From Amoebophrya sp. A120 (lineage: Eukaryota; Protista; Dinoflagellata), in assembly GCA_905178155.1 (NCBI GenBank), contig CAJINV010000009.1, positions 2,891,373 through 2,955,372 on the forward strand: a stretch of DNA of 64,000 bases, given 5' to 3'. Positions within the stretch are counted from its first letter, which is position 1, and each line of letters begins with the position of its first letter. The translations under genes and the position numbers were made by a program. The notes beneath the pieces were generated by a model. The model saw only the letters and a program-made list of their open reading frames with translations. It had not been told where the DNA came from and ran no database searches. Shown piece after piece: positions 1 to 64,000 of the stretch.

Positions 1-2128
1 TTCATTTGAAACGCCGGCTCGTATTCCAGCTCGAAGGTAAGGAAAAAGCGGACGGCAAAGCATTGCAAAGAAAAGGGCCCCCTTCCCAAATTGATGAATC
101 AACACGCATCTTCCTTCCGAAATTCTGCGAGGCGGATTTGTGGCCATAAATCTGCATTGCAAGAAGACAAATCCAGAGAGCAGTCCGCCGGCGTGTCAAT
201 ATACAACTGCAGACGAAGATTTGTAACGCTGTGAGGCCAACAGGCACAGGGCAGACCTCTGCCATAGCCGTGCTAAGTGCCTCCACAAAAAGATCCCTGC
301 CTAAGGCTTAGGTGGATCTGTGCGCAGGAGTCCTGCTCTCATCTCTACTGCAAGACAAACTCGATTTTCTCTTCCGCACGTATATGATCCCGCATCATAG
401 ATTTTGATTTCCATTCTGATATAATGGGGAGGGGGAACCTTTATTCTATATTGGGATAAAAAGACGGCAATCCCCACGTTGCCCAACAGGTAGGGTCGGC
501 TTTCGAAAATTTCTTGTTGCAGCATGGTTGATAGCGTATGCTTTGCAAAAGTATGGCATCGTACTCGTATACCTAAACCTATACATTTACATGCATTACA
601 AATTTCATGAGAATTAAAATCTGTAATGCGGATTTACCTTGAGAAGTACATTTGTAATGCATGATTGCAATTAGAATTACTACCCTACGTACGAGTACGA
701 TACTTTTGCATTGCATATAGGGCGGTCTCGGCCAACAAGTCAAAACCGGCCACCAGCGGGTATCAAATGCAAAAATGTCTGGGTCTGGAAACTTGTGATG
801 CAAGAAAGGGAGTAGTGAACTCACTCTAATGCGCTGCCAAGCATGACAAGTTTTTTCCGTGGTTCTGAGTTGCGTACCCCGCATGAGAAACTGAGTTTTT
901 GCATGACAGGGAGGAGGAGCTCCTCGCGGCCATGCAACACAGAGTTCAGAGTCACGCCAGACAAGCATGACAAATCTCGCAATCTCCCAGACCCAGACAT
1001 TTTTACATTTGATAGCGGGTCTGCGGTCACAACCTGGAAGAGGGAAGAGACGGTGCAGCAAATCAAAACCTGGTTGTAGTAGCCGTAGTATTTCTTCACT
1101 TGCTCGAAGCGGGTCAACGGCTTCTGGCCCGGCTTCTTGCTCTTCTTCTTCGTCTTCTTCGCGCCGTCACTTCGCCTCTTACGTGGGGACGATGAGGTCG
1201 AGGAGGACCTCGATCTTCCTGTATTTTTCGCGGCTTTTGTCGTTGATCCCGGCGGAGGTGATAAGTCCCCGCCGGCGTGGAGGTTTTCAGGTGGATCACC
1301 ACTACCACCATCCCCGGGTCCACCTCCGCGATCAGCGCTGGAAAACAGTATCCAAGAAAAAAACTGTGTTAGTGTAACTTTCTTTGGCTGACAGCATCAC
1401 AAATTTGCTCTACATGACACAGAAAACCTGTCATGCGGGGTTTGTAAGGGAAAACACGCATGAAATGAGGACTGCATGGCTGTCTGGCATGACAGGCGTA
1501 ACATAACTCTGTTGCATGTTCTGCATCACAGATTTACACCTACACAGTTTTTTTCTAGCATAAACAGCATACTGCCTCCATTGCTGTACTTTAACCGCAC
1601 CCAAGGTAGGGCCAACGCAAGACCGCCCGCCACGGTTTTAATAGTACCCTTCGCAGACGTCGCACCGGAGGACCCGCTGAGCTTCACGTGCAAGTCGGTG
1701 GCGCGGATTTTTATCTTTCTGGGCCGCCCGCCCGGTACTGCAGCCTCGATCGCACATCGCGCTCCTTCGGGAGTTGTTTGAGTTTTGGATCGCACCTCAG
1801 GCGGGGCGATGAGATCTCTAGTGGGACGCCGGGCCGACCACGACCACGACCACCTCGTCTCTCTCTCGCGTGGTAGTACGTCGTCGAAAAATAGCAGGCG
1901 CCTCTCCTGCTTTGACGGCAGCGCTACTGCAGTACTTCTGTAGTCCACGATACTGCCGTTGCATTTTTGTCGCGTTTCTTGCGAGAAAGATGTAGTTAAA
2001 AATCGTGGGAAGAAAGACGTACTGCATTGGCTCCTCCTCGTGGCTGTTCTCTCCGGCGCGGCCGGCAGTTCGAACTCTTGCAGTGGCGGCGGTAGCTCAA
2101 CACAGTGCCAGTAGTTGCGCATGATCAT
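1..2128 (-). CDS. Gene 1 (runs off left edge): hypothetical protein split by 4 introners
   Basis: Removing 1349-1562, 761-1014, 537-717 and 61-458 (each +5 nt) joins MIMRNYW...GSMLF/SSADRGG...VTADP/LVAGFDLLAETAL/STMLQQEIF...IAVF/AVRFFLTFELEYEPAFQM in frame. Hydrophobic stretches near the left edge; no family recognised. Confidence 0.75.
61..458. mobile_element. Introner family D (degenerate)
   Basis: Degenerate CCCCTCCCC/GGGGAGGGGG TIRs; TSD caaag/aaaag; frame restored. Confidence 0.7.
537..717. mobile_element. Introner family B
   Basis: TIR TATnnnnTGCAAAAGTAT; TSD tagcg/taggg. Confidence 0.8.
761..1014. mobile_element. Introner family A
   Basis: TIR TATCAAATGCAAAAATGTCTGGGTCTGG; TSD gcggg. 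Confidence 0.92.
1349..1562. mobile_element. Introner family C
   Basis: TIR TATCCAAGAAAAAAACTGTGT; TSD aacag. Confidence 0.92.
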
Positions 2129-4131: not shown

Positions 4132-4189
4132 CCTCCTGGCTTGATTCTACAAGATAAAAACAACCTTCGTCCCCGCGCTCCAGAGGAAC

Positions 4190-11100: not shown

Positions 11101-14100
11101 GGAGGAGACTTTTTTTCTCACGATATTGAACCGGGTTTCATCATTAAGGAACGCCAGTCCCTTCTGGTCCAGCTTGCGCACCTCCTCTAACAACTCCGAT
11201 GTGCAAGAAAAAAACTGTGTAATAGTGTAATGTAACGCAGAACAGATGGAAGCAACACATTTACGCTCGTCATGTTGCCGGACAGTCATGCAGTCCACTT
11301 TTCTTCACTATGCGTTTATTTTCCACCACATGCTAGCCGTGCTTGACAGGCTCCGGCTCCCTCTGCCATGCACCGGAAGCAAATTTGTCATGCTGTCAGC
11401 CATCCACGTAAGTAGAGAATTACAACACTAAAATTAGTGTTTTCTTCCTGGAGAATATCGCACGAAAAAACTGTTTCACAGTGGTGATTTAGATTTTGCA
11501 AAATCTGCATCACAAGTTTTGTAATACGCGTGAAACTGAAAATCTGTCATGCGGGGTTCCTAGGGGAAAACACAGCTAGAAATCCATTGTCTTGCATGTG
11601 TGGCATGACGCACACTTCTGCGATCGATTTTCTGCATCACAAGTTCACAGTGAAACAGTTTTTTCTTGCGATAGATCATATCGGAGTTGATACTCAAACT
11701 GTTCAACAGCGGGTCCTCGTCTGGCTCTTGGGTTTCTTGTATAAAATGCAAAAGCATCGCACTCGTTGTATTGCAATCATACATTACAAATCTTTTTCTT
11801 AAGGTAGATCCGCATTACAAATTTTGTTTCTCATGCTGAGGACATCTGTGATGCATTTATACGAGTACGATACTTTTGCACAGGATATCTTGCAGCAGAA
11901 CGCCATCGCCATCCGAAGTATGCTCGTTTTGCCTCCTTAGACGACCGCTCTCTACTTCGTCCTCCTCCTCCACGCGGGACGACGAGCTGTACTTATTTCT
12001 CGTCGCGCTAGAAGAACTACCTCCCGTGGTCGGGGGCCCCCGCCCTGGTCGTGCCCCTGGTGCGTATGAACTGCAAAAGTAGTATCGTACTCCCTCGTAT
12101 AAAAAATGCATACACAAATTTCCTCAGCATGAGAAATAAAATTTGCAATGCGGATGTACCTTAGCAAAAGAATTTGTGATGCATGATTGCAATACAAGTA
12201 CGATACTTTTGCACAGGATACTGCGCCGTCGCTGGCCATCGCAGGACGACCACCCGATACCTCATGCAGCCGTGGTGATGCGCGGGAAAAGAAAGACATC
12301 GAGGTTGACGGAAAAAGCATTCCTATCCTGAGTAAAAACGTCCCCACACCAGAGTTGTCATGCAGATTTGCAATGACAGGAACATTTGTAATGCGCATCG
12401 CCAGGAGAGGCATTGTTAGTCGTGTTTTGGAATTTGTAATGCTGTAAACAGGATGAGTAGATGGATTTCTGATGCAGCTGGCCTTGCGAACCTGCACTAC
12501 ACTACGGACTGCAACTTGTGATGCGTGACCCCCAAAAGTTCTAGGTTTGTGTTGCAAAATCCCCATCTTGACTCTGGTGTCGGGATGTTTTTACTCAGAA
12601 TAACTCCGGCGGTCGTGTCCCCGCCGAGCGGTGGTTTCCCCGAAAAGACTTCGGCGCTGGCGTTTCTCGTCTTGCCACCTCGCAGCATCAAGTTGGTAAC
12701 GTTACTCCCGTTGTAGTACTATCCGCTGCAAAAGTTGTACTAGCGCACTAGTAAAGTAGACATGATGTTCTTGATCATGATCGCAGAGCAAATTTATTAA
12801 ACTTGATCTCATCGAGTGAGAAATCATATGAATGCGGTTGAGAAAGACATGATTCATATTCTTGAGTGACTGCATTCAGAGTTTTAGTTGTACGCAATGT
12901 ACTTTTCGCTGAACATCATACTTTTGCAATCCATATTATCCCGGCACTGCTAGAGGGGGACCCCAGCAGCGCAGTAGCATCAGCTCCCATCGCGACGGTA
13001 GACTGAGAAGAATAAGACTGCACGCCCGGCAACACCTCCCACACACTGTAGCGCCAGGGAGGGCCGTTGGAGGACACAAGACCCCTGCTCACCACGGCCC
13101 CGCCGACCGCAAAGAGCGGGCTTCTTTCCAAGTAGAAACTCCGCTCGTCGATTCTGTTCGAGGGCGAAAATATTCTGGACAGTCGGCCTGTGCTGGTGCC
13201 GGAAAATGAATTATCCCCCCGGTCGGGCTTCCGCAGCTGCGTGGAAAACGTCTCGCTCGTAGTCAGAAGACCTGCGCCCAACGTGGTACTCACGCCGTTA
13301 CTCAGTAAGTTATTTTGAAACTTCGCTTCGGTAAAGTTGCGCAACCTATCCTGTGCAAAAATATCGCACTCGTATAAATGCATTACAAATTTCCTCAGCA
13401 TGAGAAATAAAATTTGTAATGCAGATTTGCCTTGGAAACAAGATTTGTAATGCAGGACTTGCATTTATACGAGTACGATACTTTTGCACAGGATACAACC
13501 CCCCGCGCGATAAAACGAAGCGATGATTCCAGTATTCGAACTTTTTGTGCGACAGCTTCAGCGCCTTATTGCAAGCAAAAATCCCCCCTCCCCATAGCTG
13601 AAAGTTTGTCATGCATATTTGTGCCCACAAATCGGGTCTGTCTTGCCAGAAGGCACATTCAGGCTGCCCGCCACGTTAATACGCAGGCCATTTGTAATGC
13701 GGTAAGGCCTACAGGGTAGCCGTCTACCATGCTAGGCGCCTACGCCAAAAGGCCCCTGCCTAGGCTTAGGATCTGCGTGCCGTCTTCTACTGCAACACAG
13801 ATCTGATTTGTGTATCCAAATCCAGCATCAGAAATTTCGTTTTGATACGGGTAGGGGGGATATTTCCTTTTGATACGCCTGCACTGCACCATCTATCGCT
13901 TTCTCGACAGAAACACCACTGTCCTTTCGTCCTGGTCCTTCTACTTCATCGATCGAAGCTTCCGCTAGTATCCTGTGCAAAAATACTCGTACTAACAAAT
14001 TGGAATTGCGTTCTTTATACACATAGAAAAATCTACGTTGTGGGTGTCCAGGTGAGTTCGCTTTGCAAATCTCATTTATGCTGAGTCAATTTTAATTTCA

Positions 14101-17100
14101 ATTTCAATGTTTTTGTAAATGCGATTCACACAGCATTCACATTCTAGTACGATCCATTTGTAACGACCCATAGCCAGGCGCCCGCTCCAACTTTTTTCCG
14201 CTTGGTAAATTTCCTGCAGCTGAGCGCCGACCCGCCTCGCCTCCTGCTTCAGAGTGGCGAGCGCAGCTCCGGTTATGCATTGCAAATATGTCTGGCGTTT
14301 TGTCTGGAAACAGCACCTTGGTACAGCACAGTGAACGAAGAGAGCCAGCACTTGAGTTGTTAAATCAATTTTGAATGTTTTTGAATTTCTCATGCAAGGT
14401 GTCACGCATGCTTTTTGGACCTGGCATAATGAAGACGAGAAGACACACACCGAAGAATTTTTTGTCACTTGAATTAAGTAAAAAGTAGGAATCTTGTGAT
14501 GCGAAAGTTGACAGATCTGTGATGCATGGCTAGTAGTCGTGGCAACCCTTATTTCTGTCGTCAGCTGTAACTACCCAGTTTGTCATGCAAAACACGTCGG
14601 CACTAGAACGCGGAATACGAGCCGAGAAATTTGATGCCGTACACCAGAACGACCTGGCTCTGTCATGCAAAGCGCAGCAACACAAATCCGCTGCGTTTTT
14701 CCAGACACCGCAGCAGCTGACATAAGTATTTGCATTCGATATCGGTGCTGCGAAGCTGATCTTCGAGGGGTCCTGCGCCCGTGGTCTGTCTTCTTTCCTC
14801 TCCTGGGAAGAACTGTCGTGGAGAGGAAACAACCAGTCCGCGGCTGGTGCGCTCCTTGTCCTTGTCCTTGAACTCCTCCTCAAGCATGTTTTTTTCCGTT
14901 TCGCACTGCTTTTCCAACGTTTCCTTTTCGATCGCGAACTATCAAATGCAAATATGCTTGGGTCTGGAGAATTGCCAGGTTTGTCATGCATTTTTTGCAG
15001 GACCCATGAGGCCTGTCATGCATGACCTAGCATCGCGGATTTTTAGAGGACTTCCTGATGCGTATTCCGCATGAGAAATGCCCTCTCTGCGGAGCACAAA
15101 CTGGGCTCCTCTTGCTGTGGCATGCAATACAGATTTTTTTGGAATCCATATACAGCGTTACAAGTCGCCACTTTCCAGACCCAGACATATTTGCATTTGA
15201 TACGAACGCCCTCTCGAGTTCTCGTCTCTTCCGCAGCACGCTTCGTTCCGCTTCCTCGGCCACCTGGGCCAGCCTCCTATCAAATGCAAAAATGTCTGGG
15301 TCTGGAAAATTGGAACTTGTATTGCGTGTGCAGGATTCCAGAAAAATCTGTGTTGCATAAAAGCACCAAGAGCGCCGCGTTTTCATCATGAGAAAGCGCA
15401 GTTTGTAATGCGCAATAAGCATGAGAAAGTGTCTCAAAAATTTGTCATGCTCCAGTGCTCTTACAGGCGCAGTCACTCATGGCCATTCAGCATTACAGGT
15501 TTCCAGACGGAGACATATTTGCAATGCATACCTCCGCTCGGTGGCCGACAGCCGCTCCAAGCCCTCGACGAGTGCGTTCACAGCGCTGGTGTTCTCGTCC
15601 GTCGGATTCTGTTATCCTGTGCAAAACAAGTATCGTAGTCGTATAAATGCAAGTCTTGCATTACAAATACCAGCCATGCCCCGGCTGACGCCGGGGCGAG
15701 CGGCTGTTGTGGCGGGGCAGGACTATTTGCGGATCGGGCCACAGTGCCAGAGCTTTGCGCACGGCGTGATAGTTCGAAGGAAATACTGGCGCCGGTTTGC
15801 GCCATCTCAACCCGCTGGGCCTCCTGCGCGCTTCCCGCGCCTTCAGGCGCTATGCGCAGGGAGCAGCTGCAGCGAAGCTTGGGGGCGAAGAGAAGCCGCT
15901 CCGACATAGATGCCGAAGGAAGCAGAACGGGGGCCGCAATGCCCTTTTTTGATCACCCACCCGCCCCCGCCCTAAAAGCTTCTCGGCGGAAATCGCTGGC
16001 GCGAGAGGGTGGCGCGAGAGGGTGGCGCGAAAGGGCGGCGCGAGAGGGTAGCGCGGGAGGGTAGCGCGAAAGGGTGCGGGCCTGCGCGATGAAAAGGCCC
16101 AAACAAAATTGGCCGCGTGCCGGGCGGATTCGAGTTTTTGCAACCCTCTCGCAGACCCTCTTTTTCACCTCCTCCGAGAGGTGTTGCGAATAATCCGGCT
16201 ATACTCGCCGGCAGAGGTCGACAGAGGTGGCCGAGAGGTGGCCCAGAGGGTGCGCGAGAGGTTCGCCCTTATTCGCGCAACCTCTCGGCACCTCTGTCCA
16301 CCTCTCGCGTGCCCTCTTTTTTACCTCTCGGCCACCTCCGTGCCGCTTAGCGGCCCCAAAGGGTGACCCCTTCGGCGGGCTATACTCGCGCCACCTCTCG
16401 GCCACCCTCCCGAACTACCTCCCGCGCCACCTCTCCGCCTCTGTCGACCTCTTTTTGACCTCTTTTTGACCTCCCGGCCACCTCTCGTTTACCCTCTCTA
16501 GCCAATATTTTCGCATGAATTAACTACTATTAATGATGATTAAGGTCATTGAGGGGTCGTTGAGGGGTCTTCGACCCCCCGAAGGGGGTTCATTGACCCC
16601 CCTTGGGTACCCCTTCGTTTTTCGAGGCCCCCCGAAGGCCCCTCGAAGGCCCCCCAAAGGGGCTCCGTTGACCCCCCCCTTCGGGGGCTCATTGAACCCC
16701 CTTCGGGGGGCCTTCGGCGTAGTAAATTTCTGTTTTTCTCGAGGCACCCCTTCGGGGGGCCTTCGGGGGGCCTTCAGGGGGCCTTCGGGGGGCCTCCGAC
16801 CGACGGCCTTCGGGGGGCCTTCGGGGGGTCTTCGGGGGGCCTTCGGGGGGCCTTCGGGGGGTCTTCGGGGGGTCTCCGGGGGTCTTCGGGGGGTCTTCGG
16901 GGGGTCTTCGGGGGGCCTCGGGCGGACGCCGTCGAGCGACGCCAAGAAGTTTGGTTTGCAATGCGCGCGGGGTCTTCGTCTTTCTTTACGATGGCGCTGC
17001 GGGTCTCGCACTTGCGTGGGGCCGAAACAACGGCAAGACCCGAAACACCCACGGCGCCATGCCCTTCGGCGGGTTGTTCGGCCAAGCCAAAGGCTTTTTT

Positions 17101-48250: not shown

Positions 48251-48487
48251 TATGAAAAGAAAAAGCTTCGTCCTCACAGTCATACATTCATTACTTTGCA
48301 GGTTTTGCATGACAAAATTTTCGCGCCGCAGCGCAGCTTTTTCTTTTCGTGCACAATCACAAGCCAAATCGCGTATGAAAGACTGTGAAGATGCATTCTG
48401 CTTAAGCATGACAGGAGGTAGGTCTAATTTTGTATTCTGCATAAATGCGCATGAGTCGTGATCGTGACGAACTTTTTTTACTCGATA
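48251..48487. mobile_element. Introner-like element (singleton TIR), outside mapped CDS
   Basis: TATGAAAAGAAAAAGCTTCGTC...GACGAACTTTTTTTACTCGATA; TSD gcaga/gtaga. Confidence 0.72.
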
Positions 48488-48591
48488 GTAGAAGAAATTC
48501 CTTCAATGAAATCCGGCATCAAGGAAGTCGGCAGTCGCGCTTATTAGTCCGGAAGGCTGCAAGTGGAGCGGTTTGGTCAAAAGAAACAGGG

Positions 48592-49351: not shown

Positions 49352-49735
49352 CTAATTTTCATCACCACCTGTTGCTGTTACTGTTGCTCTTTCGGAAGGG
49401 GGGATGTATCTCTTCCGGATGTGGTTGCCGGCCGGGAGGATGATGTCACCGGTCTTTTTATTGCGAAAGTGCTCCGCCGGCTTCCACTTCTTACTTTTTT
49501 CATCGTACACCCAACGCGCAAACTCAAGCTGCTCGTGCACCAGAAGATGCGCACGTAGAACATCCGGCTGGCACTCAAAAGTGATACCACAACGGACACA
49601 ACAGTAGCTATCCCCCCCGTTGTGCCGCACATGCACTTTTCTGTAGGCGGAAGCACTGCTGGAGGAAGAAGATCGGCATACTTCTCACAATACAACTCCC
49701 ACGGCGTCCGGTGCGCTATCACTGTGGCGTACGGG
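49352..49735 (-). pseudogene. Frameshifted fragment with a C2H2 zinc-finger-like motif
   Basis: CVRCGITFECQPDVLRAHLLVH in ORF 49352-49636; its apparent N-terminal part (TPWELYCEKYADLLPP) is in another frame; flanked by direct repeats. Confidence 0.4.
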
Positions 49736-49828
49736 TTGCGGCCATTTAAAGATGAACTACTACTGCCTAATTTTCATCACCACCTGTAGGTAGGCACAAA
49801 CGAGGGTAATTAGTGTTGACCTATCGCA

Positions 49829-50048
49829 TATGCAAAGAAAAAAGCGTTACTACAGTTACACACTCTGATGGAAGACAAGCAAGACAGACAACCTCTGTCA
49901 TGCAGGAAATGCTTGCCAGCCTTATTTCATTCCTGTTTTCCCGTATAGACATAGTCTGCGCATCACAGGTTTTCTTTGCTATGTCGAGCAACTTTGTGAT
50001 GCAGAAACTCCAACAAATGTGTAACTGTAACACTTTATTCGTGGGATA
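49829..50048. mobile_element. Introner family G, outside mapped CDS
   Basis: TSD tcgca. Confidence 0.85.
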
Positions 50049-51344: not shown

Positions 51345-51665
51345 TATTGAGAGGAAAAATCCCCCCTCCCCATATCGAAAAGGTATGTTTGCGAAAATTT
51401 GCGTTGCTGATTTGAGACCACAAATCGCATCTGTCTTGCAAGGAGGCAACTCCACAAGCTCCGCAGCATTGTGCAGGCGGTTTGTGATGCTGATGGGCCT
51501 ACAGAACGGACGTTCCTCATGCTAGACGCCTAGGCCAAAACCTATCTACTTAGGCTGAGTATGGGCCTGCATTTCTCTCCAGCAAGACAGATCCGATCTG
51601 TGTACGCAAATCCTGCATCAGAAACTTCGTTTTGATATGGGGAGGGGGGATTTTTCCTTTTGATA
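51345..51665. mobile_element. Introner family D, outside mapped CDS
   Basis: TSD agttc. Confidence 0.9.
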
Positions 51666-52297
51666 AGTTCGTCGTCTTGTTCTGCCTGATCGATATAATC
51701 GATGGAGATCATGACCTTCTCACTAGAAGTATTTGACCACTACAAGGTGGCCAAAAATTACCAAGACCAACAACTTCATCGCGCACGATAGCGATCATGT
51801 TGGCCCATTTTCATTTTCTAATTCTAAGCAAAATTTGATACAGCGCATAATGTCGCATAATAATTTCGCAAACAGGAAAGGCATTGTTGATCTCTATTGA
51901 TGGCTGCACTTCTGATAGAAGTCACAGCTTAGACTTAGTACGTGCTATGTATAACTCGGAGGCTCGTTTTTTACACGTTCGGCTGCAGAAGCGTTGTATC
52001 CACGCCTGATGTCTGAAACTGAATCTGCAACACCTTCCTCCACTGTTTGAGCCAAGAAGTGCAGCCAAACTTAAAAAGTAAGTACGTACTATCATTGCAA
52101 AAAGCTTGCAGGCAAAGAATAAGAAACATTGATTCAGCACATCATTCGACTGTATGCCCCTTCTTGCAGAATGAATGCACACCTGCGAAGATCCTGGGTG
52201 ACTAGTAGTTCAACGTCTATAGTCGATTCTGACTCATATTACGATAGCGCAAGATTGTATTCGTAAATAACATCGGAAATGGGTGCGCCAGCACCTT

Positions 52298-52555
52298 TAT
52301 CCAATGCAAATAGGTCTGGGTCTGGAAGGTTGTGGTGCTAAAATTGGCTATAGGCGCACAGTAGTAGTGCGCTGCTATGCATGACAAAATTTTGGGCTGC
52401 TATGGCAAACTGCGTTTCTGTATGACAGCAGCTGAGAGGAACTTTTCGTGCCCATGCATCTGCATCACAGAGTTTCCAGTCATGCTCATGCCAGACCTAC
52501 AACATGAGAAGCCTTACATTCTTCCAACTAGGCCCAGACATAATTGCGATGCGTA
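52298..52555. mobile_element. Introner family A, outside mapped CDS
   Basis: TSD acctt/gcctt. Confidence 0.8.
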
Positions 52556-53018
52556 GCCTTTGCGCGATAATTTTCATCGTGGCCCTCCCGACGTCTCGAG
52601 CCGCTTATCGTTACCAAAATCTTGACTACTGGTAGCGCAGGTAAAACCATTGTGGAGATCTACTCGTCGGGGATCCTGACGTGCGAGCGGATATATTGAT
52701 ACTACTGACAAACTTGTAGCCGCGTCTAAAAAGTAGATTGCTCAGATTGCAGAAAACAAAATCGTGGCGTTTCTTGGATTTTTTGGCAGTAGGTAGTACA
52801 GCAATATCATGCAAGTAGCAGTAGCAGTAAAAAGAACAGTATACAACTTTTCGATTTTGATTTTCCTTTCTCATTTTTTAGCAGTGGGTGTAAGTGTATA
52901 CAATTGTCGTATAGCATGCAACAGTTTTCAAGATTAGCTTCTGGTTCAATATCAATTCTGATTCTACTGTTTTTCTGAACTACAATTATCCCTAGTACGT
53001 ACGAATAATGCAATAGAT

Positions 53019-56000
53019 TTATTCTCGAAGGATGCAGCTTCGCAAAATGTTAAGTATTATCAAGTCGATTCCGAGAATGCGGGTCGTGCCGTCGAGACCG
53101 AGAATGCAGGCCAGCGCCAGGTCGTTGTTTGTATGACCACATGAGCTGCATTTTTTTAAAACCGGTTTAACCGGCTCGCTTTTCCGGAGGAACAATGCCC
53201 CCCCGACGAACATGAAGCAGGGGGCAGCGGGGGAGTACCAGATGGGCACCTTGATCCCCTCGTTACCGGAAACGAACATAGAAATCGCGTACCGTTTCCG
53301 CGGCAAGGAGTCCTCCGTTAGCGGGTCAACATAGCCGGGCGGGGGCTGCTGCTCGTTGCCGACGTGCTGGGGTCGTTGTGCTACTTGTTCCCCGCCTCCA
53401 AAAGCACCACCGGCACCCCCCGGTTGCTGCATCGGTTCCTCGAGCTCCTTAAATTCCAGCACACCTTGGCAGTAGCTCGTACTGTGACAAGAATTATCCA
53501 CGCTGCTGCTCGTCCCAGTGACGCAAGCTTCGCCCTTCAGCGTGCAGGCCAACGCTTCCTGCTGTTGCCGGTCTTCCACGGTTTGGTCCACCTGCAGCTC
53601 CTTCCCCCGCTTGAGGCCAATCACCCGGTCCCCGAATATCCGGAAGCCAACGTATCCTGTTGAAAAAACTCCCCGCCCCAGAGTCAAGTTGGGAAGTGCG
53701 CAACACAAATCCAGAAGCTGAGGGAGCCACGCATGCCAAGTTTATTTCATCTGTAGTGTAGTGCACGTTAACAATGATAGGCAGCATCACAAAGCAATCA
53801 GCTTATTTACTGTTGACAGCATCACAGATTCCGAAACTGAAAAAAGTTTGCCTCTCATGGAGATCCATCATCATCATCATCATCATCAGTGAATCGGCTC
53901 TGCCGACCGGGCAACCCAACGCGAACGCCTAGCATACAAATCTTCCTATAGATGCAATTCTGCATGACACCTCTGGGCGGGACGTGGGGACGTTTTTCCA
54001 TATGATACAACCGTGAGTTTCTTCATTTTTTCCGGGAGATCTTCCTCTACATCTTCTTCGTCGAATTGGAGCTGCACTTTTTCCCAAATCCCCGTTAGAT
54101 CGTAAATCGAAAAAAGCCGGTTTATCAGCAGCCGCTGCATATTCACATCCGCATCCTGACTTACTCCGAACAGTTCCGCTTCGGAGAAAAACCGCAATGA
54201 CGGGGTTTTTTGCCGGTAATAGGAAATCTGCGCAGGCAACTCCGGAGTAGGGTGGGGCTGGGGAGGGGATGCAGGCGATTGCACGGCTACGGCGCCTTGG
54301 CTTTCCTCCCCGCCCCTCCTGTTACTTCGCCGCCGGCCTCTGCCCCGGTCGTCTTGCGGGTTGTTGGAAGCCCTCGCCTGCTCCACCCGAGGTGGTTGCG
54401 GCTGGGTGAAATAGTACATCTTCGGTATTCGGCGGAGCATGACTGGAATCGTCCTGTCTTGCATCGTCAGAATCTCCTGCCCATCCTATTACAATGAAAA
54501 ATGCCCCCACTCCCCAACTTGGGTGGAGCATTTGTATTGCAAACCTTTCCAAGTGAGACACTCGCCCTCTTGCGTCTATCAGCATCACAGATCTACTTCA
54601 ATTGTGAATAGTCAACATTTGTATTGCAAAAGATCCCAGCAAGAGCGGCGCCTGTCATGCAAGCGGTGCGATACACGCCTAGACCCTTCATCAGAGAGGT
54701 AATTCACACTCCTTTCATGCATGACAAAAAGTTTTGATTTGGAAACTTCGCATAAAAAATTTTTGCAACTGTGGGGGTCGTGGGGGCATTTTTCATTGTA
54801 ATACATCCTCTGTCGGCACCGATTTGAAATTGTCGCCAAAGCTGAAAACCTCCATGACCGCCTTCGGCGTTTGCATCAGCGGGAGCTGCATCTGCTTCGT
54901 TAACGGGACTGGCGCCCGGTGGGACAGCGCGCCGGGAGAACCACCCTGGTCGCGGCCTCCATGGGGACCACTAGTACTAGAACCGCCGCTTTCTTCGGAA
55001 TTATTCCCAAGTGCAGCAGCAGCAGCAGCACCAGCGCCTGAAGATGAAGATGCTGCCCCACGATCTCTACTTGCACGACGGCTTTTTCCTATCCTGAGTA
55101 AAAACGTACCCACACCAGAGTCAGGATGGGGATTTGCAACACAAACCTAGGAGTTTTGTGTGTCACGCATGACAAGTTTCAGTCCGTAAGGTAGTGCAAG
55201 TTAGCAAGGAAAGCCGCATCACAAATCGACCTTCGGATCCTGTTTACAGCATTACAAGTTCCCAAAGACGATTGAAAATGCCTGTCATGGGGTTGCGCAT
55301 CACAAATGTTCCTGTCATGGCAAATCTGCATGACAACTCTGGGGTGGGTACGTTTTTACTCAGGATATTTCCTTTCTTCTCGTCTTCCTTCGCTTTCGTT
55401 TTCAAACCGTTCCGGTCCAAGTTTTTACTCTTGGACAGGGTGACGGCGAAGGGAGACGGTATCAAACAAAAAAGTGTTAACGTTAAGACGGTTTATCAAT
55501 ATGCATGTCAGATTTTGCCCAGCATGCATGCTAAGCATGACAAATTTGGGCACGTTTTGTGATGCATTATCGCATCACAAATTCCGTTAACGTTAACACT
55601 TTTTCCCGTGATAAAAGGAGCCGTCACGTGATGATCCTGCATGTGGGTGAAGTCGAACATTTTGGTCTTCAGAGCTTTCTCTGCCAGCGCCTGCTTATGC
55701 CCGACGGAGGCCTGTGCGGACGACGACCCTGACGATGTTCCCGCAAGTGTGTTCGAGGACGGTTGGGAGGTAAGCACTGCTCCTCCTCCAGCCTCGCCGA
55801 CTACCAAACTGGGCATCGTCAAGGCGTGGCCAATTTTGTTCGGTTCGATCTTCAGAGCGTTTCGATCAAAAACCAGCTCCGCGTTGTTTAAAAGTTCGTT
55901 GTTATTCCCGTGAAGTACATCGCGCTCCACCGTCTGTGCCGTCTCGCCGAGTACAGAGCATCCGTGCGTCGCATTGTGAGGAAACATCCCACCTCCCTGT

Positions 56001-59000
56001 ATCAAAACGAAGCTTCTGACGCTGGATTTCCCGTACACAAATCAGAGCTGTCTTGCAGTACAGGATTGGAGGCATATAATGCCGTGCCTGAGTACAGAGC
56101 CTCTAACGTGGACGCTTAGCGTCACAAATGTATATGCTGTAGCCCAAGCAGCATCACAAACCGTTCGCATAATGCGGCGGAGACTGTAGAGTTGCCTTCT
56201 TACAAGACAAATGGAGCTGTGATTTAATCAGCAACGCAAATTTTCGGAGACATACCTTTTCAATATGGGGAGGGGGGATTTTTCCTTTCAATACGTCGCG
56301 AGCCTTTCTCTGCGGACCCCGAACGCGGTGTTGGCCATCCACATAGCGTAGCGGTGCTGCAGCTTGTCCAGCCATTTCAGCAGCTTTTTCTTCCCGCTCA
56401 GCGTATCATCGTCAAACCCGGTGGGCAAATTCGGATAGTTTTGGTTGATAATTCGGTAGGTCAGGTCGCCATGAAGCGAAACCTCCCCGCCAAAAATTTC
56501 CAGAACCGGGGGATCCATATCCTGTGCAAAAGTATCGCACTCGTAGTAATCGCAAGCATGCATTACAAATCTCCTTTCCAAGGTAAAACAGCACGACAAA
56601 TTTCATTTCTCATGCTGAGCAAATTTGTCATGCGATTCATACTTACTAGTTAGTACGATACTTTTGCATTGCATAATCCAGATAGTTCGGCAGCTCTCGG
56701 TAGACCGCGGCCGGTTCTTGATGAAAATGTTGTCCTGGTGCCGAAGAAGAGGAGGACGCAGGTAAAGAAGAGCCTGCAGCTCCCCGTGCAGGTCCCGCCG
56801 CCTGACTACCTTGCGCGGCTTGCCCGCCTGTTTGTGCTTGTGCCATCCTAGCCGGTGAATTATCCTCCTCGCTGGAGAGGCTGAAGAAAGAACTTGCGGT
56901 CCACTTCTTTCCGTTTTTTTCTGCATACTGCGCCTCCAATTCGCGCAGCAGTTGCTTGCGTTCCTCTTTCGTCATGGGAATCCCACAGAAATAAAACTGT
57001 GTTAGTGTAGGCGTCTTCTTGGGGTGACAGCATGACAAATCCACACTGCATAACAGAGAAAGCCTGTCATGCACATCTAGCACGCGATGTGGAAAACCAA
57101 AACACATATGAATAAAACTTCATAGCTGGCTAGCATGACAAGCGTAACTGTGTTGCAGGCTTTGCATCACAGAGTTACACTATACACAGCCTTTTTCTTG
57201 CATAATTGGGTCGGAGGAATCGTTTGAAGAGCTGTCCTCGTCGGACTGGTCGCTATTTTCGTCCCCTGTTTCCTCCAGATCCTTCTTCTTCAAGAACACC
57301 GGCACCCGTTCCCACACCCCCGCGAACCAGAGCTGCTGTGCGGTCACTGGGAACAGGGAGTCCAGGTCGTCGATCACCTGATAGGTCGGTTCCTCCACAG
57401 ATTGCAGGACGGACGCCTCCCGCAAAACAGCCTGCATTACCTCCCCGGGGTCGAGATTCATGGTGCGCTGCTGTTGCTGCGCCGCCGCGGGGGTTCCGGA
57501 AATGGGGAACAGCACGTCGCTAATGTCCTTGGTCGACGCGATCCGCATCACCTTTGCGTACTGTTCCACTCTGCCTGGCCGGAAAATCTTATGCATTGCA
57601 ATTGTGTCTGGGATCTTGTGATGCCAGTCTGCGAGTGGTGGGCGCACTGCAATTCGCAGCCACGCATGACAACATTTTGCGCCGTTATGTGTTTCGCTTT
57701 TGGCATGGCAAACTGCATTTTTGCATGACAGACAGGCAAGCGCAAGAAGCTCTTATTTTGCCTCTCATCCATTACAGATTTGACTTTGAGAGCCATGTGA
57801 GACAAGCATGACAAACTTGCGCTCTCCCAGACCCAGACATATTTGCAGTGGATAAATCTTGTGCGCGATCGAGTCGTGGTTTTCCTGGCCGTTGTTGAGC
57901 CGCTCCAGCATCGAGTAAAACGAGTCTTGCAGCTCTGCAAAGACGTGCTCCGGGCGGGTTAAGATCATGTGCTCGCGCCGGATGTCGGATTTTCGTCGTA
58001 GCTGCAACCGCTCGTTGTCCGGTCCGAGCAAATTGTTCCGCGAATTTACGCGGGCGGCTCTGTCACCGTTGTTATTCGCCTGCGGATCATTATTTCGGCG
58101 GAAGTTCGCCACCTGGTTCTCGACCGCAACCAGGGGCTGGTAGCAGTCGTTTTCTAAAACGAGAAAGCTGGCGGTACTGATGCAAGATTTATCCGTCATG
58201 GTGGGCTGCAGCAGAGATAACTGCGGCAACCCGTTGTGCAGCTTTTTCTTTTTCAAATTGCTCATTGACTCCACCGCCTGTAGCTCCCGCATTTGCCTCG
58301 GCGTCACTTTCGCGAACTTTTTCCGTTTGTCGTTGCCCCGGAATTCTTCGTAGTCTTCGCATTTCTTCGGCTATCCAAGAAAAAAAATGTGTAAGTGTAA
58401 CTTCGTAGGAAGAACAGCATCACAAATTCGTTTTGCAGTGCAGGGAAAACCTGCCATGCCCAGCTGGTACGTTAAAAAACGTATGAAAGTTGCCTATGAC
58501 GCACATCCAGCATTTTTCCAAGCGTATACAGTTTTGCATTTCCAGCATCACAGACTTACACTTACACAGTTTTTTTCTTGCGTATCGGAATTTTCAGGTA
58601 CTTGATCGCCTCCCCGGGGTTATCCCGTGTAAAAACGTCCTCGCCCCATAGCTGTCATGCAATTCTGCATGCCAAAAAAGTTTCTCATGCGGAGACCTAT
58701 GAGACGCCTTTTGTATTCGTGTTCTGGAATTTGTGATGCTATAATCAGCACGCTAGGCGAGATCTGTGATGCTTCTGAACTAGCTGAGCAGGATTACACT
58801 ATAAGGACAAATTTGTCATGCGAAGAAGCCAAAGCTGCATGATTTGTCTAGCAGATTTCCCATCTTGACTCTGGTGTGGGGACATTTTTACTCAGGATAG
58901 GGGTGAAGCTGCAGAATCGCCGACCAGATATTCATGGGCGCCTTATCAAATGCAAATATGTTTGGGTCTGGAAGATTGCCAGGTTTGTCATGCATATTTT

Positions 59001-62000
59001 GCATGACCAATGACGCCTGTAATGCATGCCCTAGCATCCCGGATTTTTAGAAGGCTTCCCGATGCTTATTCCGCATGAGAAACGCCTTCCCCTTGTAGCA
59101 CAAACTGGACTCTTTTTGCTAGTCATGCAATACAGATTTTTTTGGAATCCAAAGACAGCATCACAACTTACCACCTTCCACACCCAGACATTTTTGCACT
59201 TGATACACCTCGTCCGCATCAAATTCGTCTGGGATGAGGTCCTCTGGCTTGACAATGGTACTCTGTTCCAGCCCGCTGGCAGAGCAACCTCCTTTCGACG
59301 AGCCGCTCTGCTTATCAAATGCAAAAATGTCTGGGTCTGGAAGATTTTTAGATTTGTCATGCATATTTTCCATGATCCATGTCGTCTGGAATGCAGGGCC
59401 TAGCATGACAGACTCTGCCAGATCCCTATCATTCCTATCCTGCATGAGAAACTGCCTCGCGATTAGGTCAAAAGTGGACAGCTTTTGGCAATCACGCAAC
59501 ACAGATTCTTACATGATTCAGATTTAGCATGACAAGTTGCTTTGTTTCAGACCCAGACATTTTTGCATTTGATACTGCTGCAGCTGCTCCTGGTACTGGC
59601 AGTTTTCCGAGACTGCTCCTAGTGGATGGGTCGTCGCCGTCTCATATCCTATGGAAAAACGCCCCCACGCTAGGGTTAAGATGGGGATCTCGCAACACAA
59701 GTCACGACGTTTTTGGAGTCACGCATGACAAGCTCCTCTCTGTGGTGTATGGCAATGGAATGCGGGTTAAGTAGCAAGAACAGGCGCATTACAAATCCCG
59801 ATGCTCATCCTGTTTAAAGCATCACAAATACCAAAACACGACCGAAAATGTACATGTATATGTAATGCTTATGCTTGGTATGGGGATGCGCATGACAAGT
59901 TTTTCTTTTTATTTTCTGTTATTGCAAATCTACATGACAACTATCTGGTGGGGACGGAGTTTTTACACAGGATATCTCACTGCCTTCAGACATCCAAAAA
60001 TGGGGGTCGCGCAGCAGCAATCTATTCGCGGAGCTCCCGTGCGACGGGCGGGAGGAGGATCTATTGGACCCATGCGAAAGACGGTTGGTGCCGGGATTGC
60101 TACAGAAGGAGCTTGCACCGCCGGTGGTGGCAAAGAGCGCACTCATCGCGGAATTCGTGCGGGGAATGGTGGCCGTCTATTCTGAGTAAAAACGTCCACA
60201 CCCCAGAGCTGTCATGCAAATCTGCGTGCCAAAAAAGTTTCTCATGCGGAGCCCCATGGGAAGGTTTTATTTTCTAGGGACGTTTTGGAGTTTGTGATGC
60301 TACAATCAGCATGAAATGCTAGAACTGTGATGCTGCTAATCTAGCTAAACAGGATCACGCAATGAGGGCAAGCTTGTCATGGGAAACAACCAAAGCTGGT
60401 TGATTTGTCTAGCAGATTGGCCATCTTGACTCTGGTGTGGGGACGTTTTTGCTCAGGATACCGTCTCTGCTGATGAACTCATTGTCATCGGGAAACAAAG
60501 CCTGCTGCCCTTCCTGCTGCCCGCTGGTGTCACTGCTCGCATACATAGCATAGGAATCTCGCTCGGACATGTCGCCCGACGCGGCTTTCGCCACGTGGTT
60601 TTGGTACTGGAGGTCCGCCTGCGCTTGTTGCACATGGTTCAGCAAGTTGCGCTCCGCGACCTTTTGTGCTTTCACATTCAGCCTTCCCGGGTCGCCGTTG
60701 TATTCGTGTATCTGTGGGTATCCTGAGTAAAAACGTCCCCGCCCCAGAGTTGTCATCCAGATTTGCAGTCACAGGAAGATTTGTAATGTGCATCCCCATG
60801 AGAGGCATTTCCAATCCATCGTGTTTTGTGCTTTGTAATGCTGTAAACAGGATGACTAGATGGATTTGTGTTGCGGCTGTACTTGCAGCTAAACTGCCCT
60901 ACAATACAGAGAGGAACCTGCCATGCTTGACTCCCAAAACTTCTCGATTTGTGTTGCGATTTCCCCTTGACTCTGGGGCGTTTTATGTACTGGAAAAGAC
61001 CAAAATTAAAGCACGGAGGCCAAAATTAAAGCACTTGACTCTGGGGTGGGAGCGTTTTTGATCAGGATAGTGGGTCGTCGTTCTTGTTCCCCTGATGCTC
61101 GAGCAACTGCGAGTTGGCGCACATCTCCTGGAGTTCCTCCTGCGACAGGTGTTCGGCGCGGGTATCAAGTGCAAATATGTATGGGTCTGAAAATTTGTGA
61201 TGCTAAAATGTGCATGATGAAAACACTTCCTCATGCAGAAAAGCAGGACAAGTCTGCAAAACGCGTTATCAACATACAAACTCCGCATGAGAAACTGCGT
61301 TTTTGTATGACATGAGAGGCTGCCACTTTTGTTGGTCATGCAATACAGATTTCACAGGAATGCAAGACCAGCATTACCAGTTCCAACTTTCCAGACCCAG
61401 ACATATTTGCATTTGATAGCGAGCTTGTTCCAATAACGTATCCGGGTCCTCGGAGAGGTAAACACCAGCGCGCCGTTGCTGGCCGTCGTAGCGATGAGGA
61501 TGATGATCCACCTTCGCAGTGGAACTACTAGCACTAGCTCGTGTGCTCGTCGTCTTTTCGTCTAGCTTCTGGATGTCGCGTGCTGCCCGGGTGTTGGTCA
61601 CCTGCTGTTGCTTCCTCAAAAGGGACATCGAGGACACGGTGCTGTCCCGCGGACTGTCATGCGCACTGTAGGTCCCGACGTCGACCAAAACCTCCTGTTT
61701 TGCGGTGGGCGGCCTGATGTGCAAATCGGCAAAAGCACGCATAATCTGGTCCATCTCCGGCTCGGAAAGCTGCCTTCTACGGTCTCTCGCTTGCGATTCG
61801 GTCGTTAACTGTCGCTCCGTATCAAGTGCAATTATGTCTGGGTGTGCACGAAGCCTGCATGTTTGTCATGCTTGTCTGGCATGACTCTGAAATCTGTCAT
61901 GCACGTTACCCAAGAGCCTCATTTTTCTGCCATGCAGAAGCGCAGTTTGTCACGCAGAATAGGCAACACCTAGAAGCTCAGAAACTTGTCATGCTGAGCC

Positions 62001-64000
62001 AGCACTTGTGGCCTCCTCATGATACGCCACCCAGCATCACAAGTTTATTCCAGATCCAGACATATTTGCAATGCATACTCCGGGCGGACAAACTCCCCGA
62101 TGTACTCGTCCATGTGCATTTCGTATCCAACAAAAAAACGTTGTTAGTGTAAACTTGTGATGCGCAACATGCAAATTGATTGCGCCTGTTATGCTGTGTC
62201 TGCATAGTAGGGTTCATTCAAGGGCGTTTTCGCGTACTAACTGCGCATGACAGGTTTTTGCTGTCATGCGAGAGATATTTGTCATGCTAATCCTCCAAGA
62301 AAGTTACATCTACAATCTTTTTTTCGTGGATATTTCGGGTAGCATCTCCAGCTCTCTGGAGCTATCCACAATAAGTCTCCCGTACAACACGTACAATTTC
62401 AATGAGTATACAAATGCGGTCTCTGCATGACAAAACTTGGCTCCGATCCTAGTTTAGCATGACAAGGGTTGCACTCCAAATTGGTGAAATTTATTGTGAT
62501 GCATCTTGTACATGTAGTACGGGTGGAAATTTGTATTGCATAGGAGCCGCGGTGCTGCAGCACATTTTGCTCCGTTAAGGGCATTTGCTTGTGTGTACCA
62601 TCTCGATCCCCCCCTGCCCCAGGAGGCGATACGAAAACGTGGTCCCCGGGAGTTGTAGAAGACGCCGCCGTGTACGGTCCGCTTTGCGCTAGATGCTCTA
62701 CATGATTCTGTTGTTTCTCGAGGAGTTGAGGACCACCAGAGGAACTGCCAGCGCTGCTACCCGCTCTGGCTGCGAGCTGCAGCAGATTGCTCACACCCAC
62801 TCCAGCCCTGGTTGTGCTCGAGCTCAACCTTGGGCTCGCCGAGGTGCTACCGCTCACTTGCCGACTGTACTCGACTTGCTTCTGCAGCTCTTCCAATCTT
62901 TGCTGCCCAAATTCTGTCGTCGAGACGTTCATCAGGTCTGTGTTGCGATGAACAATCCAAGTCGGATCAACCTGCTGCACGAGCACACACGGGTCTTCCT
63001 GTCCCGGCTGGCGGTGGTGGTTCATCCCCGACGAGCCAGAAGGTCCGCCGCACCCCGCCGCGTTCCTGGAAAAGCGGGCTTTATCCCCGTGCGGTCCACC
63101 AGCACCAGCGCCGGTTGTCTCCGCCGGGCTGTGCGCAGAGCCAGACGCGGAACTCGATGCCACCGAGCTAGACTGGATCTGGAAATTCGCACAATCGAGC
63201 CCGTTCATGTTCATGCTCATGGTGTCGAAAACGCCTGCCTGCGGCTATCAACTGTAAAAGTGTCCGGGTCTGGAACATTCTGACGCTTGTCATGCACGTT
63301 TTGCATGAGCCCGGATGTCTGTGATGCATGCCCTAGCATCACAGATTTTTTCAGAGCTTCTTGATGCCTATGCCGAGTGACAAATGCCCTCTCCGCGTAG
63401 CAAAAGTTACACTCCTTTTGGTACTCATGCAGTACAGATTTTTCTGGAATCCAAATGCAGCATGACAAGTTCGCACTCTTCCAGACCCAGACATTTTTAC
63501 ATTTGATAGCGGCCCACCCTGCGCAAGTAGCTGCCCGTTCCAAAGCCAGTCCTGGTTCGGTCTGCTCGTCCCCTGGCCGCCGGCGCCCCCACTCTGGCAG
63601 CTCATGCCCCTCGACGGCCCGCTAGTACTCATTTTTGCACTGACCGCCTCGGCGGAAATGAGAGAAGAGCTCACCTGCGAGAGCGTGCAGACACTCCCAG
63701 GGTCGCGTGTCGGGGCTTGGTCCGTTATGCATTGCAAATATGTCTGGGTCTGGAAGAGTCGGGGTTTGCCATGCACATTTTGCATGACCAGTGTTGTCTC
63801 TGATGCTGATGCTAGCATCACAGATTTTTTGAGAGCTTCTTGATGCTGATTACGCATGAGAAATGCCCTCTCCGCGTGCCAAAAACTGCACTCCTCTTGC
63901 TGTTCATGCAACACAGATGTTTTCAGAATCCGCAGACAACATTACAAGTTCCACTCTTCCAGACCCCGACATATTTGCACCTGTTATCCGTCGTAGTCGT
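53019..64000 (-). CDS. Gene 3 (starts beyond right edge): large hypothetical protein split by 21 introners
   Basis: Junction phases are consistent after element+5 nt removal, except for a 1-nt discrepancy near 60161-60177. Last exon ...TVGFRIFGDRVIG...RSCILRE* ends at 53019. No family recognised. Confidence 0.75.
53653..54007. mobile_element. Introner family E with internal (CAT)n expansion
   Basis: TSD caacg/caacc. Confidence 0.85.
54487..54803. mobile_element. Introner family J
   Basis: TIR TATTACAATGAAAAATGCCCCCAC; TSD catcc. Confidence 0.92.
55090..55367. mobile_element. Introner family E
   Basis: TSD tttcc. Confidence 0.92.
55460..55613. mobile_element. Introner family I
   Basis: TIR TATCA....AAAAAGTGTTAACGTTAA; TSD gacgg/aaagg. 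Confidence 0.85.
55972..56293. mobile_element. Introner family D
   Basis: Left end CAT variant; TSD cgtcg. Confidence 0.87.
56518..56675. mobile_element. Introner family B
   Basis: TSD atcca. Confidence 0.9.
56979..57204. mobile_element. Introner family C
   Basis: TSD atggg/attgg. Confidence 0.82.
57590..57854. mobile_element. Introner family A
   Basis: TSD aatct. Confidence 0.88.
58372..58584. mobile_element. Introner family C
   Basis: TSD tcggc/tcgga. Confidence 0.88.
58621..58899. mobile_element. Introner family E
   Basis: TSD ggggt. Confidence 0.92.
58944..59205. mobile_element. Introner family A
   Basis: TSD cgcct/cacct. Confidence 0.9.
59313..59574. mobile_element. Introner family A
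   Basis: TSD ctgct. Confidence 0.92.
59645..59974. mobile_element. Introner family E
   Basis: TSD tctca. Confidence 0.88.
60178..60460. mobile_element. Introner family E
   Basis: TSD ccgtc. Confidence 0.9.
60719..61069. mobile_element. Introner family E with internal duplication near right end
   Basis: TSD gtggg; CTTGACTCTGGGG and CCAAAATTAAAGCAC each occur twice. Confidence 0.87.
61163..61418. mobile_element. Introner family A
   Basis: TSD gcggg/gcgag. Confidence 0.9.
61820..62077. mobile_element. Introner family A
   Basis: TSD ctccg. Confidence 0.88.
62124..62332. mobile_element. Introner family C (diverged)
   Basis: TSD tttcg. Confidence 0.85.
62363..62542. mobile_element. Introner family L
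   Basis: TATCCACAATAAG..CCCGTAC / GTACGGG..TTTGTATTGCATA; TSD ggagc. Confidence 0.83.
63246..63508. mobile_element. Introner family A
   Basis: TSD gcggc. Confidence 0.92.
63726..63986. mobile_element. Introner family A
   Basis: TSD tccgt. Confidence 0.88.

Follow-up and report, generated by a model that had tools for sequence, protein, structure and literature searches.

Introner-like elements and their ends

A 64,000-nt stretch of the Amoebophrya sp. A120 genome (the window) raises the question of what reads a motif that recurs inside otherwise unrelated families of small inserted elements, and whether it is read in DNA or in RNA. A total of 94 elements with terminal inverted repeats (TIRs) were called (Table 1), present in both orientations, inserted within minus-strand genes, and grouped into 23 families by interior similarity, which linked three families at an E value of 1e-4. 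The elements are short and noncoding and have TIRs, 5-bp target site duplications (TSDs; perfect in 64 of 94 elements, with one mismatch in 19), and many similar copies, the features that define MITEs. In a position weight matrix (PWM) of the ends, derived with a caller seeded on the TAT...AAA pattern, the first three positions were T (.97), A (.98), and T (.96), and positions 11 to 13 were A (.94 to.96). Each position of TAT was retained at at least 373 of 389 ends. The sequence-only reading of this DNA had stated that the families have different TIRs, which was half right, as TAT-N5-G-N-AAA ends and the 5-bp TSD are common to all families. This sharing of ends and TSD length indicates common ancestry or a common mobiliser. 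A second set of 370 elements in 25 families, taken from other contigs (a sample of approximately 0.7 Mb), was scored with the PWM frozen from the window. A search of viral contigs for the family A end pattern returned no matches.

Judged by their sequence, the window elements appear to fit the published description of A120 introners (PMC7789003, PMC12130899). The accessible portions of these accounts describe inverted repeats that start with TAT, followed by seven looser bases and AAA, together with a 3- to 5-nt direct repeat, noncanonical ends, a length of ~240 nt, and co-oriented genes, all as found here; all nine predominant noncanonical sites start with NT, like the putative donor here. 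The same portions describe no shared internal motif, 32-bp pair, or fixed cut geometry, unlike what was found or is proposed here, and state no family-specific inverted-repeat motif and no transposase.

An internal motif shared among families

The strict motif GCAWBACA was found 320 times in the 20,089 bp of interior sequence from the 94 elements, compared with 10.3 ± 3.2 (maximum, 20) in 200 dinucleotide shuffles, an enrichment of approximately 30-fold. It was present in 90 of 94 elements and 20 of the 23 families, and a strict site was kept in 366 of the 370 elements of the second set. By EM the motif was approximately (W)GCAWBASARRT, without resemblance to any TIR subsequence, and elements carried two to nine sites spread over the whole interior, not confined near the ends. 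Of the 347 strict sites in the window, 321 fell within the called elements; on inspection, 20 of the remaining 26 belonged to compound or uncalled elements, which left 6 elsewhere in the intragenic DNA of this one window. No strict site was present in the 8,600 bp of GC-rich inserts scanned. Both the recurrence of the motif across families and its rarity outside the elements, as proposed from the sequence alone, were thereby borne out. The papers searched contained no description of the motif or of the 32-bp pair reported below.

Direct pairs with a constant pitch

Using the window PWM, 127 direct pairs spaced 30 to 33 bp apart were identified in 13 of 23 families and 71 of 94 elements, a result reached by none of 500 null sets. 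In the second set, 514 direct pairs at 31 to 33 bp were distributed over 15 of 25 families and 321 of 370 elements (0 of 300 null sets). When both sets were pooled, the top direct spacing was 32 bp (0 of 200 null sets after taking the maximum). The 31- to 33-bp pitch, equal to three helical turns, was kept across 18 groups, and the spacers inside direct pairs from different TIR groups were 34% alike, versus 30% when shuffled. In elements of 109 to 112 bp, a single 32-bp pair is all that is present (3 of 3 members of the family). The shared grammar of the families is therefore a direct pair 31 to 33 bp apart with unrelated spacer sequence; only 246 of 486 window PWM sites lie inside a 30- to 33-bp pair, and pair number, place, and orientation vary between families.

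An inverted pair with a 7-bp spacer had been suggested as the common form. It showed no peak in either set and is minor and not significant, with 11 pairs in 11 of 94 elements from 3 of 23 families (matched by 105 of 500 null sets) under the window PWM and 46 pairs (2 of 25 families; matched by 96 of 300 null sets) in the second set. Strict inverted pairs numbered two, three, and seven at spacers of 6, 7, and 8 bp, respectively. The four examples originally quoted have correct coordinates and 7-bp spacers, but in three of them the second half is not GCAWBACA (Table 1), and the site map of the family D element at 55090 to 55367 contains no inverted pair. Overlapping inverted matches at 1 and 6 bp arise because TGCA and CATG are self-complementary. 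At a low threshold, 5 of 18 groups share an inverted site located 15 bp upstream of a direct pair, an arrangement that is thus at most secondary. Inverted pairs as halves of a 32-bp lattice were also considered and rejected, since just 16 of the 57 inverted pairs at 15 bp lie inside a direct pair.

TABLE 1 Elements and motif pairs in the window
Feature	Position	Strand	Observation
TIR elements (n = 94), 134 to 468 bp	761..63986		TAT...ATA ends, 5-bp TSD
Family A example	59313..59574		Direct pairs 59355/59387 (32 bp, minus) and 59496/59527 (31 bp, plus)
Family D example, six same-direction motifs	55090..55367	+	Pairs 55136/55167, 55216/55249, and 55297/55328 (31, 33, and 31 bp)
Family D element, no sense motif	53653..54007		Joined out in 4/4 RNA-type runs; skip 360 = 355 + 5
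Family D element, opposite orientation, 6/7 sites sense	58621..58899		Joined out in 2/4 runs; skip 284 = 279 + 5
Element with mismatched TSD copies, no 31- to 33-bp pair	52298..52555		Joint places intron start at least 1 nt before terminal T
Element with mismatched TSD copies	58944..59205		Joint limits intron-start shift to 1 nt
Decayed element, two sites, none sense, no pair	48251..48487		Joined out in 4/4 runs; skip 242 = 237 + 5
Quoted inverted 7-bp pair, family A	21280..21302		Second half one mismatch off GCAWBACA
Quoted inverted pair, family C	24802..24824		Second half GCATCAGA
Quoted inverted pair, family H	27783..27805		Sole strict one of the four; first half also in 32-bp direct pair 27751/27783
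Quoted inverted pair, family J	54653..54675		Second half no match; first half in 33-bp direct pair 54620/54653
Old element	14274..14741		5 strict and 6 PWM sites, no intact pair
Old family E element	32096..32489		0 strict sites, 1 PWM site
Old element	43440..43755		0 strict sites, 4 PWM sites, no pair
Old element without any motif site	12720..12935		Inside reading frame open on its removal

Conservation between subfamilies and decay within copies

The majority frequency was 0.906 for motif columns, 0.909 for the TIR, and 0.778 for other columns, and motif conservation followed that of the TIR with rising divergence. No strand bias was identified, with 248 of 486 sites in the window and 769 of 1,578 in the second set in the sense direction; all 14 subfamilies were found in both orientations, and sense and antisense sites had similar change rates.

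Among individual copies, rare changes affected 100 of 5,655 motif core positions (1.8%), 5 of 247 acceptor-end Ts (2.0%), and none of 247 donor Ts, while TSDs differed at 54 of 1,225 positions pairwise, or ~2.2% per copy. The motif core differed from the donor T (P = 0.022) and not from the acceptor T (P = 0.63), in comparisons where the sites are not independent. The donor-end T was changed in none of 389, and the T at the other end in 14. Private changes were about half as frequent in the motif (1.5%) as in other columns (3.5%), a difference that could also come from post-insertion selection. Copies with TSD mismatches showed no excess of motif changes in the rare-change comparison (1.7% versus 1.8%); in two other comparisons, TSD-mismatched copies did carry more motif changes. 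Site density fell with age in the window (rho = −0.28, P = 0.006), with a weak trend of the same sign in the second set of elements (rho = −0.09, P = 0.09).

Persistence of the motif in three old elements had been taken to favor a host-required role. Two of these elements lack any strict site, the third has five, and none has an intact 31- to 33-bp pair (Table 1). The element at 14274 has 1.3 sites per 100 bp, versus 2.2 in perfect-TSD copies, and in that at 32096, 6 of 26 motif columns were changed versus 5 of 64 other conserved columns. The host-required role is unsupported, because the single-copy motif decays at the neutral rate (1.8% versus 2.0%) while the donor T is spared; the expected 7-bp peak is also absent. 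As each element has two to nine redundant sites, the array as a whole may have a host role.

Removal from transcripts

In RNA-type contigs from one sample, whose RNA status is presumed, 12 of the 15 listed joints remove the element plus 5 nt, and contigs of set X1 contain the elements in place. Open reading frames (ORFs) of 1,675, 1,281, and 680 amino acids are open only upon removal of the element plus 5 nt, and removal of the element plus 6 nt breaks the frames. At least two PWM sites were present in all 14 joined-out elements, and a 31- to 33-bp pair was absent from 6 of them. In raw RNA under the same species label, run X9 yielded 17 reads, all on elements and 95 to 99% alike, and run X10 yielded none. 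Ciliate-type excision at the DNA level was considered and rejected, because the X1 contigs still carry the elements and the asymmetry at the donor end runs with the direction of transcription.

Splicing would be read separately from the motif, from the element ends. The putative donor is N-T-A-T, which resembles GT except that the first base is free, and the acceptor would lie 4 nt beyond the terminal ATA, giving a 1+4 cut geometry in which donor and acceptor are probably brought together through TIR pairing. In its accessible portions, the description of Euglena nonconventional introns (PMC12501133) similarly includes free boundary bases, paired ends, and cuts placed at a constant distance from a terminal motif that is paired; it differs in the CAG/CTG signature, with no such internal repeat described.

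What reads the motif

We consider it likely that the motif functions as a site in double-stranded DNA, within nonautonomous TIR transposons, and is bound by one mobiliser of all families, for which an integrase-type DDE transposase or a DNA-binding partner is predicted. That most families have the same motif at the same pitch argues for a single mobiliser of the many families. Two protomers, separated by three turns, would bind one helix face and thereby assist pairing of the element ends. Only site-keeping copies would found new subfamilies, so that the motif would be kept along transposing lineages and decay after insertion. The earlier proposal that one trans factor reads a common cis-code is supported to this extent, including its DNA-binding, transposase-type half; the inverted unit and the host-required half are not.

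Short mixed-orientation repeats in a nonautonomous TIR element are also known from Emigrant/Lemi1 (PMC1636448) and Muta1 (PMC5499845), where transposase binds the subterminal repeats cooperatively and excision is raised. As in transposase-bound MITEs, the repeats here are conserved like the TIR across subfamilies. Unlike those of Emigrant and Muta1, the repeat is not a TIR subsequence, fills the interior, and keeps a 31- to 33-bp pitch over 18 groups, in an element that doubles as an intron. TA...TA termini are shared with IS3EU/GingerRoot, in which the TSD is usually 6 bp rather than 5 bp (PMC10045372, PMC6839031), and a 5-bp TSD is shared with TDD-4 and TDD-5 of Ginger2/TDD (PMC2836005); Ginger ends are TGT, whereas those here are TAT. 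For A120 fam38, TA termini and a 5-bp TSD were noted as "Ginger," and an integrase-like enzyme was suggested. No transposase was reported for A120 by Farhat et al. (PMC7789003), and none of 65 long ORFs (60 of the 123 longest in the second set and 5 in the window) matched a transposase Pfam, with no Pfam match of any kind for the 5 window ORFs. Elements of 813 and 834 bp have no long ORF of their own, and no integrase-like DDE ORF was found in six second-set elements of >500 bp from the ~0.7-Mb sample.

The failure to find a transposase and the dissimilarity of motif and TIR are also what would be seen if the elements had co-opted an ordinary DNA-bending or chromatin protein of the host (e.g., of the AP2 type) as a cofactor for transposition or protection. 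ApiAP2 proteins bind TGCATGCA, and such a protein predicts the same conservation pattern as a transposase; however, near absence of the motif from host DNA (only 6 of 347 sites lie outside elements, in the intragenic DNA of one window) would be odd for a general factor, making this decidedly unlikely. Passive descent of the motif pairs from one element ancestral to all families would account for the shared ends and TSD length and for the three linked families. It is very improbable, as the spacer sequence is randomised with motif and length kept, pair number, place, and orientation vary by family, and shared variants occupy 12 of 240 motif columns versus 171 of 853 others, which largely refutes it.

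Action in RNA, whether as a branch point (the motif contains UNAC), as a splicing enhancer of the UGCAUG type, or as a long-hairpin stem, is extremely improbable. In predicted folds of five of six multicopy families, pairing between motifs involves 38 to 58% of motif bases, and throughout family A a sense copy is present about 40 to 48 nt from the 3′ end. However, family D, with all sites in one direction and 15% motif-motif pairing in the predicted fold, is joined out in both orientations, and the elements at 53653 and 48251 are joined out in every run without a sense site. A is very rare at position 5 (4 versus 278), unlike in CURAY, and sense-only action is contradicted by the similar change of sense and antisense sites. 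Strand symmetry fits a mark at the DNA level, in which a host factor or domesticated transposase bound to the motif array would mark introns for cotranscriptional removal in place of the reportedly missing U1 snRNA, with redundancy masking selection on single sites. Such a mark agrees with the two or more sites in every joined-out element, the strict site in nearly all second-set elements, the failure to detect U1 (PMC7789003), and the fewer private changes at the motif. It is nevertheless unlikely, as the motif core changes like the neutral proxies and more than the donor T, the 31- to 33-bp pair is absent from 6 of 14 joined-out elements, the siteless element at 12720 sits in a frame opened by its removal, and the expected asymmetry is found at the donor T alone. 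In its specific form, a domesticated transposase on the 32-bp pair would define tens of thousands of noncanonical introns during transcription and replace U1; this is quite improbable, although if true, one protein would both spread introns and get them spliced.

Implications for introner biology

The results bear on how the roughly 30,000 introners of Amoebophrya move and how they are spliced without U1 (PMC7789003). In the published view, transposase-driven spread is ruled out; a single motif with a single pitch argues against this. The 109-bp minimal element with its 32-bp pair would provide a defined bait for the predicted mobilising protein. For annotation of these introns, a rule would come from the donor-end T together with the 1+4 geometry, which would also set the splicing signal apart from the mobility signal.

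The introner elements and their shared motif

The window was scanned for target-duplicated elements with TAT-N7-AAA ends, giving 104 candidates. The working set of 94 elements comprises 85 of these calls, scoring at least 22 (one 87-nt partial call was left out), and nine added by hand. They form families of 27, 13, 13, 13, 9, and 2 members plus 17 singletons, share a common terminal pattern, and carry a 5-bp target site duplication (TSD) that is perfect in 64, has one mismatch in 19, and more in 11. They match the A120 introners as described in the text of Farhat et al. 2021 (PMC7789003), a likeness by which the host is assigned to Amoebophrya.

The strict motif, GCAWBACA, occurs 320 times in 20,089 bp of element interiors versus 10.3 ± 3.2 times in shuffles, which bears out the sequence-only reading that the introners share an enriched motif. 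The window holds 347 strict sites in all: the 94 elements account for 321, another 20 were placed by inspection in compound or uncalled elements, and the other 6 fall elsewhere; a host count of 3 in 27.7 kb is too low, as motif-bearing fragments had been masked. The EM motif approximates (W)GCAWBASARRT, with 486 sites at 8 bits in the window. Using the family A end pattern, a metagenome scan identified a second set (at least 166 loci, 704 kb, contigs named JACKZZ01). Among the matches listed there were 370 elements of ≤500 bp, none more than 94.7% alike to a window element, with 200 assigned to family A owing to the family A bait; 1,327 strict sites were present in 73,982 bp, and 366 of the 370 elements carried one. 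The second-set elements add copies to the families seen in the window and do not represent a distant lineage.

Features observed in the window and in the second-set loci (L-numbers)
Feature	Position	Strand	Observation
Host genes	304-64000	minus	Long, low-complexity, co-oriented; Pfam match in 0 of 5 exon ORFs tested
AT-rich stretch	48906-53022		About 4 kb with RNA-type contig coverage; elements still precisely removed; no long ORF even with elements taken out
GC-rich inserts	about 6337-9630, 15613-21043, 26310-27546		Large, tandemly repetitive, nested in introners, giving introns of 1.2 to 5.4 kb; Helitron-like (hairpin then CTAG at one end, by eye)
GC-rich insert portion	15997-16473		87% alike to L023:1020-1498
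Family A ends	59313-59574, 63246-63508		Reads with different flanks in X9
Minimal elements	L025:12050-12158, L051:2473-2581, L053:1008-1119		Two TIRs and one 32-bp pair
Long family A elements	L018:1537-2349, L032:632-1465		813 and 834 bp; foreign interior of about 560 to 580 bp; no long ORF
Neighboring ORFs	L020:2627-6082		Two, with C-5 cytosine methylase domains

X9, a run under the same species label, is apparently from another strain, and its reads indicate that family A sits at other sites there.

Geometry of the motif pair

In the window, family-weighted same-direction spacing peaked at 31 to 33 bp (17.1 versus a null maximum of 5.6 ± 0.9; 0 of 500 null sets), while the best inverted spacing, 14 to 16 bp, was matched by 86 of 500. 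With the PWM frozen, the second-set matches listed gave 514 direct pairs in 15 of 25 families and 321 of 370 elements (0/300 null); the 8-bp inverted and 9-bp tail-to-tail spacings each reached 1/300 before correction. A maximum-based test was applied at two thresholds to 464 pooled elements in 38 groups (second-set share from the matches listed); 32 bp passed at both (0/200), and the second significant peak was tail-to-tail at 35 bp (0 to 1 of 200; 5 to 7 groups). The inverted pair with a 7-bp spacer, previously described as frequent, gave no peak: 46 pairs in two families among the second-set matches listed (96/300 null) and 181/200 in the pooled test at 5 bits. The motif itself stands, with its geometry corrected to a direct 31- to 33-bp pair, which is its shared grammar. 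Spacer similarity was 63% for members of one class and 34% across groups, against 30% after shuffling. In the smallest family (109 to 112 bp), all three copies hold one 32-bp pair between the TIRs, and these minimal elements are good baits. Three turns of B-DNA span 31.5 bp, and the paired sites are predicted to be bound on the same helix face.

Removal from transcripts

Elements are in place in the DNA-like run X1 and are excised precisely from RNA-type contigs. Four RNA-type contig sets from one sample yielded 25 joints; among the 15 listed, the skipped length in 12 is exactly that of the element plus 5 nt, and the other 3 connect copies of elements to one another; one additional row implies removal of the elements at 44934 and 45158. 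In-script removal of the element plus 5 nt produced minus-strand frames of 1,675, 1,281, and 680 aa spanning 17, 14, and 15 elements, versus at most 524 aa with 0, 3, or 6 extra bases.

Six joints have TSD copies that differ, and each is consistent with an intron whose start lies 1 nt ahead of the terminal T and whose end lies 4 nt beyond the far ATA; a shift of 0 is excluded only by joint 52293 and a shift of 2 only by 58938 and 48244. The donor would read N-T-A-T, a fixed noncanonical geometry, and the acceptor would sit 4 nt beyond ATA, its sequence unconstrained (joints at 44934-59205; all element ends). This donor agrees with Table S4 of Farhat et al. (PMC7789003), where the nine predominant A120 noncanonical pairs all open with GT, CT, AT, or TT and vary at the 3' end. 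Predicted folds pair 15 to 21 of the 25 terminal bases, and TIR pairing would bring the intron ends together.

Level of action and selection on the motif

The motif probably acts as DNA rather than RNA: sites are split evenly by strand, and elements lacking a sense site are still joined out (two cases). Sense sites numbered 248 of 486 in the window and, among the second-set matches listed, 769 of 1,578 in the 292 of 370 elements oriented with a codon model, which placed 94 of 97 window elements on the minus strand. In family D every site has the same direction, and elements are joined out in both orientations. Of 14 RNA-joined elements, 6 lack the 31- to 33-bp pair and all retain at least two sites.

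Between subfamilies the motif is conserved as much as the TIR, a value inflated by defining motif columns from the same sequences; shared variants occupied 12/240 motif columns versus 171/853 others. Rare changes were counted in subfamilies of at least six members (247 of 386 oriented elements, second-set share from the matches listed). Motif positions G1, C2, A3, and A8 changed at a neutral-like 100/5,655 (1.8%), about the rate of the acceptor-end T (5/247) and half that of TSD mismatch (54/1,225), unlike the donor-end T (0/247). In the full set of 389 oriented elements, a changed first T was seen at 0 donor versus 14 acceptor ends (P = 1.2 × 10^-4), with 0 versus 7 in both the window and the second-set matches listed; the zero takes one element end as 32489, and 32488 would give a single donor change. 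The donor T is a positive control, showing that these data can reveal postinsertion selection. Acceptor-end positions 2 and 3, changed in only 4/389 each, are perhaps a further constraint.

The motif decays in single copies; among 16 old elements, two keep an intact pair and two have no site. Against decay, TSD-mismatched copies show no extra motif change in the rare-change count, the motif-age trend is weak among the second-set matches listed, and private changes remain only about half as frequent in motif columns as in others, a deficit that unsampled lineages may account for. The host-required role suggested by the sequence-only reading is not supported.

Relation to known elements

Transposase-binding internal repeats have been described in Emigrant (PMC1636448) and Muta1 (PMC5499845), and by analogy the introners work like a MITE with internal, putatively binding, repeats. 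No superfamily is assignable, because the TA ends fit IS3EU/GingerRoot as described in PMC10045372 and PMC6839031 but the TSD there is usually 6 bp rather than 5, and Ginger ends are given as TGT (PMC2836005), unlike TAT here. In Gozashti et al. 2025 (PMC12130899), A120 fam38 is labeled "Ginger, 5-bp TSD, TA/TA termini"; Copia/Gypsy-like similarity is also noted. The long family A elements are close in length to the published fam38 (808 to 810 bp); since they hold a foreign interior without a long ORF, fam38 may be a nested insertion, not a coding element. No account of the motif or its pitch was found in the literature searched, including the text of PMC7789003, PMC11282704, and PMC9860276; it could be shown in Roy et al. 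2023 or in the figures of Farhat et al., such as the logos and example elements. The motif pair makes the search for the mobilizer testable.
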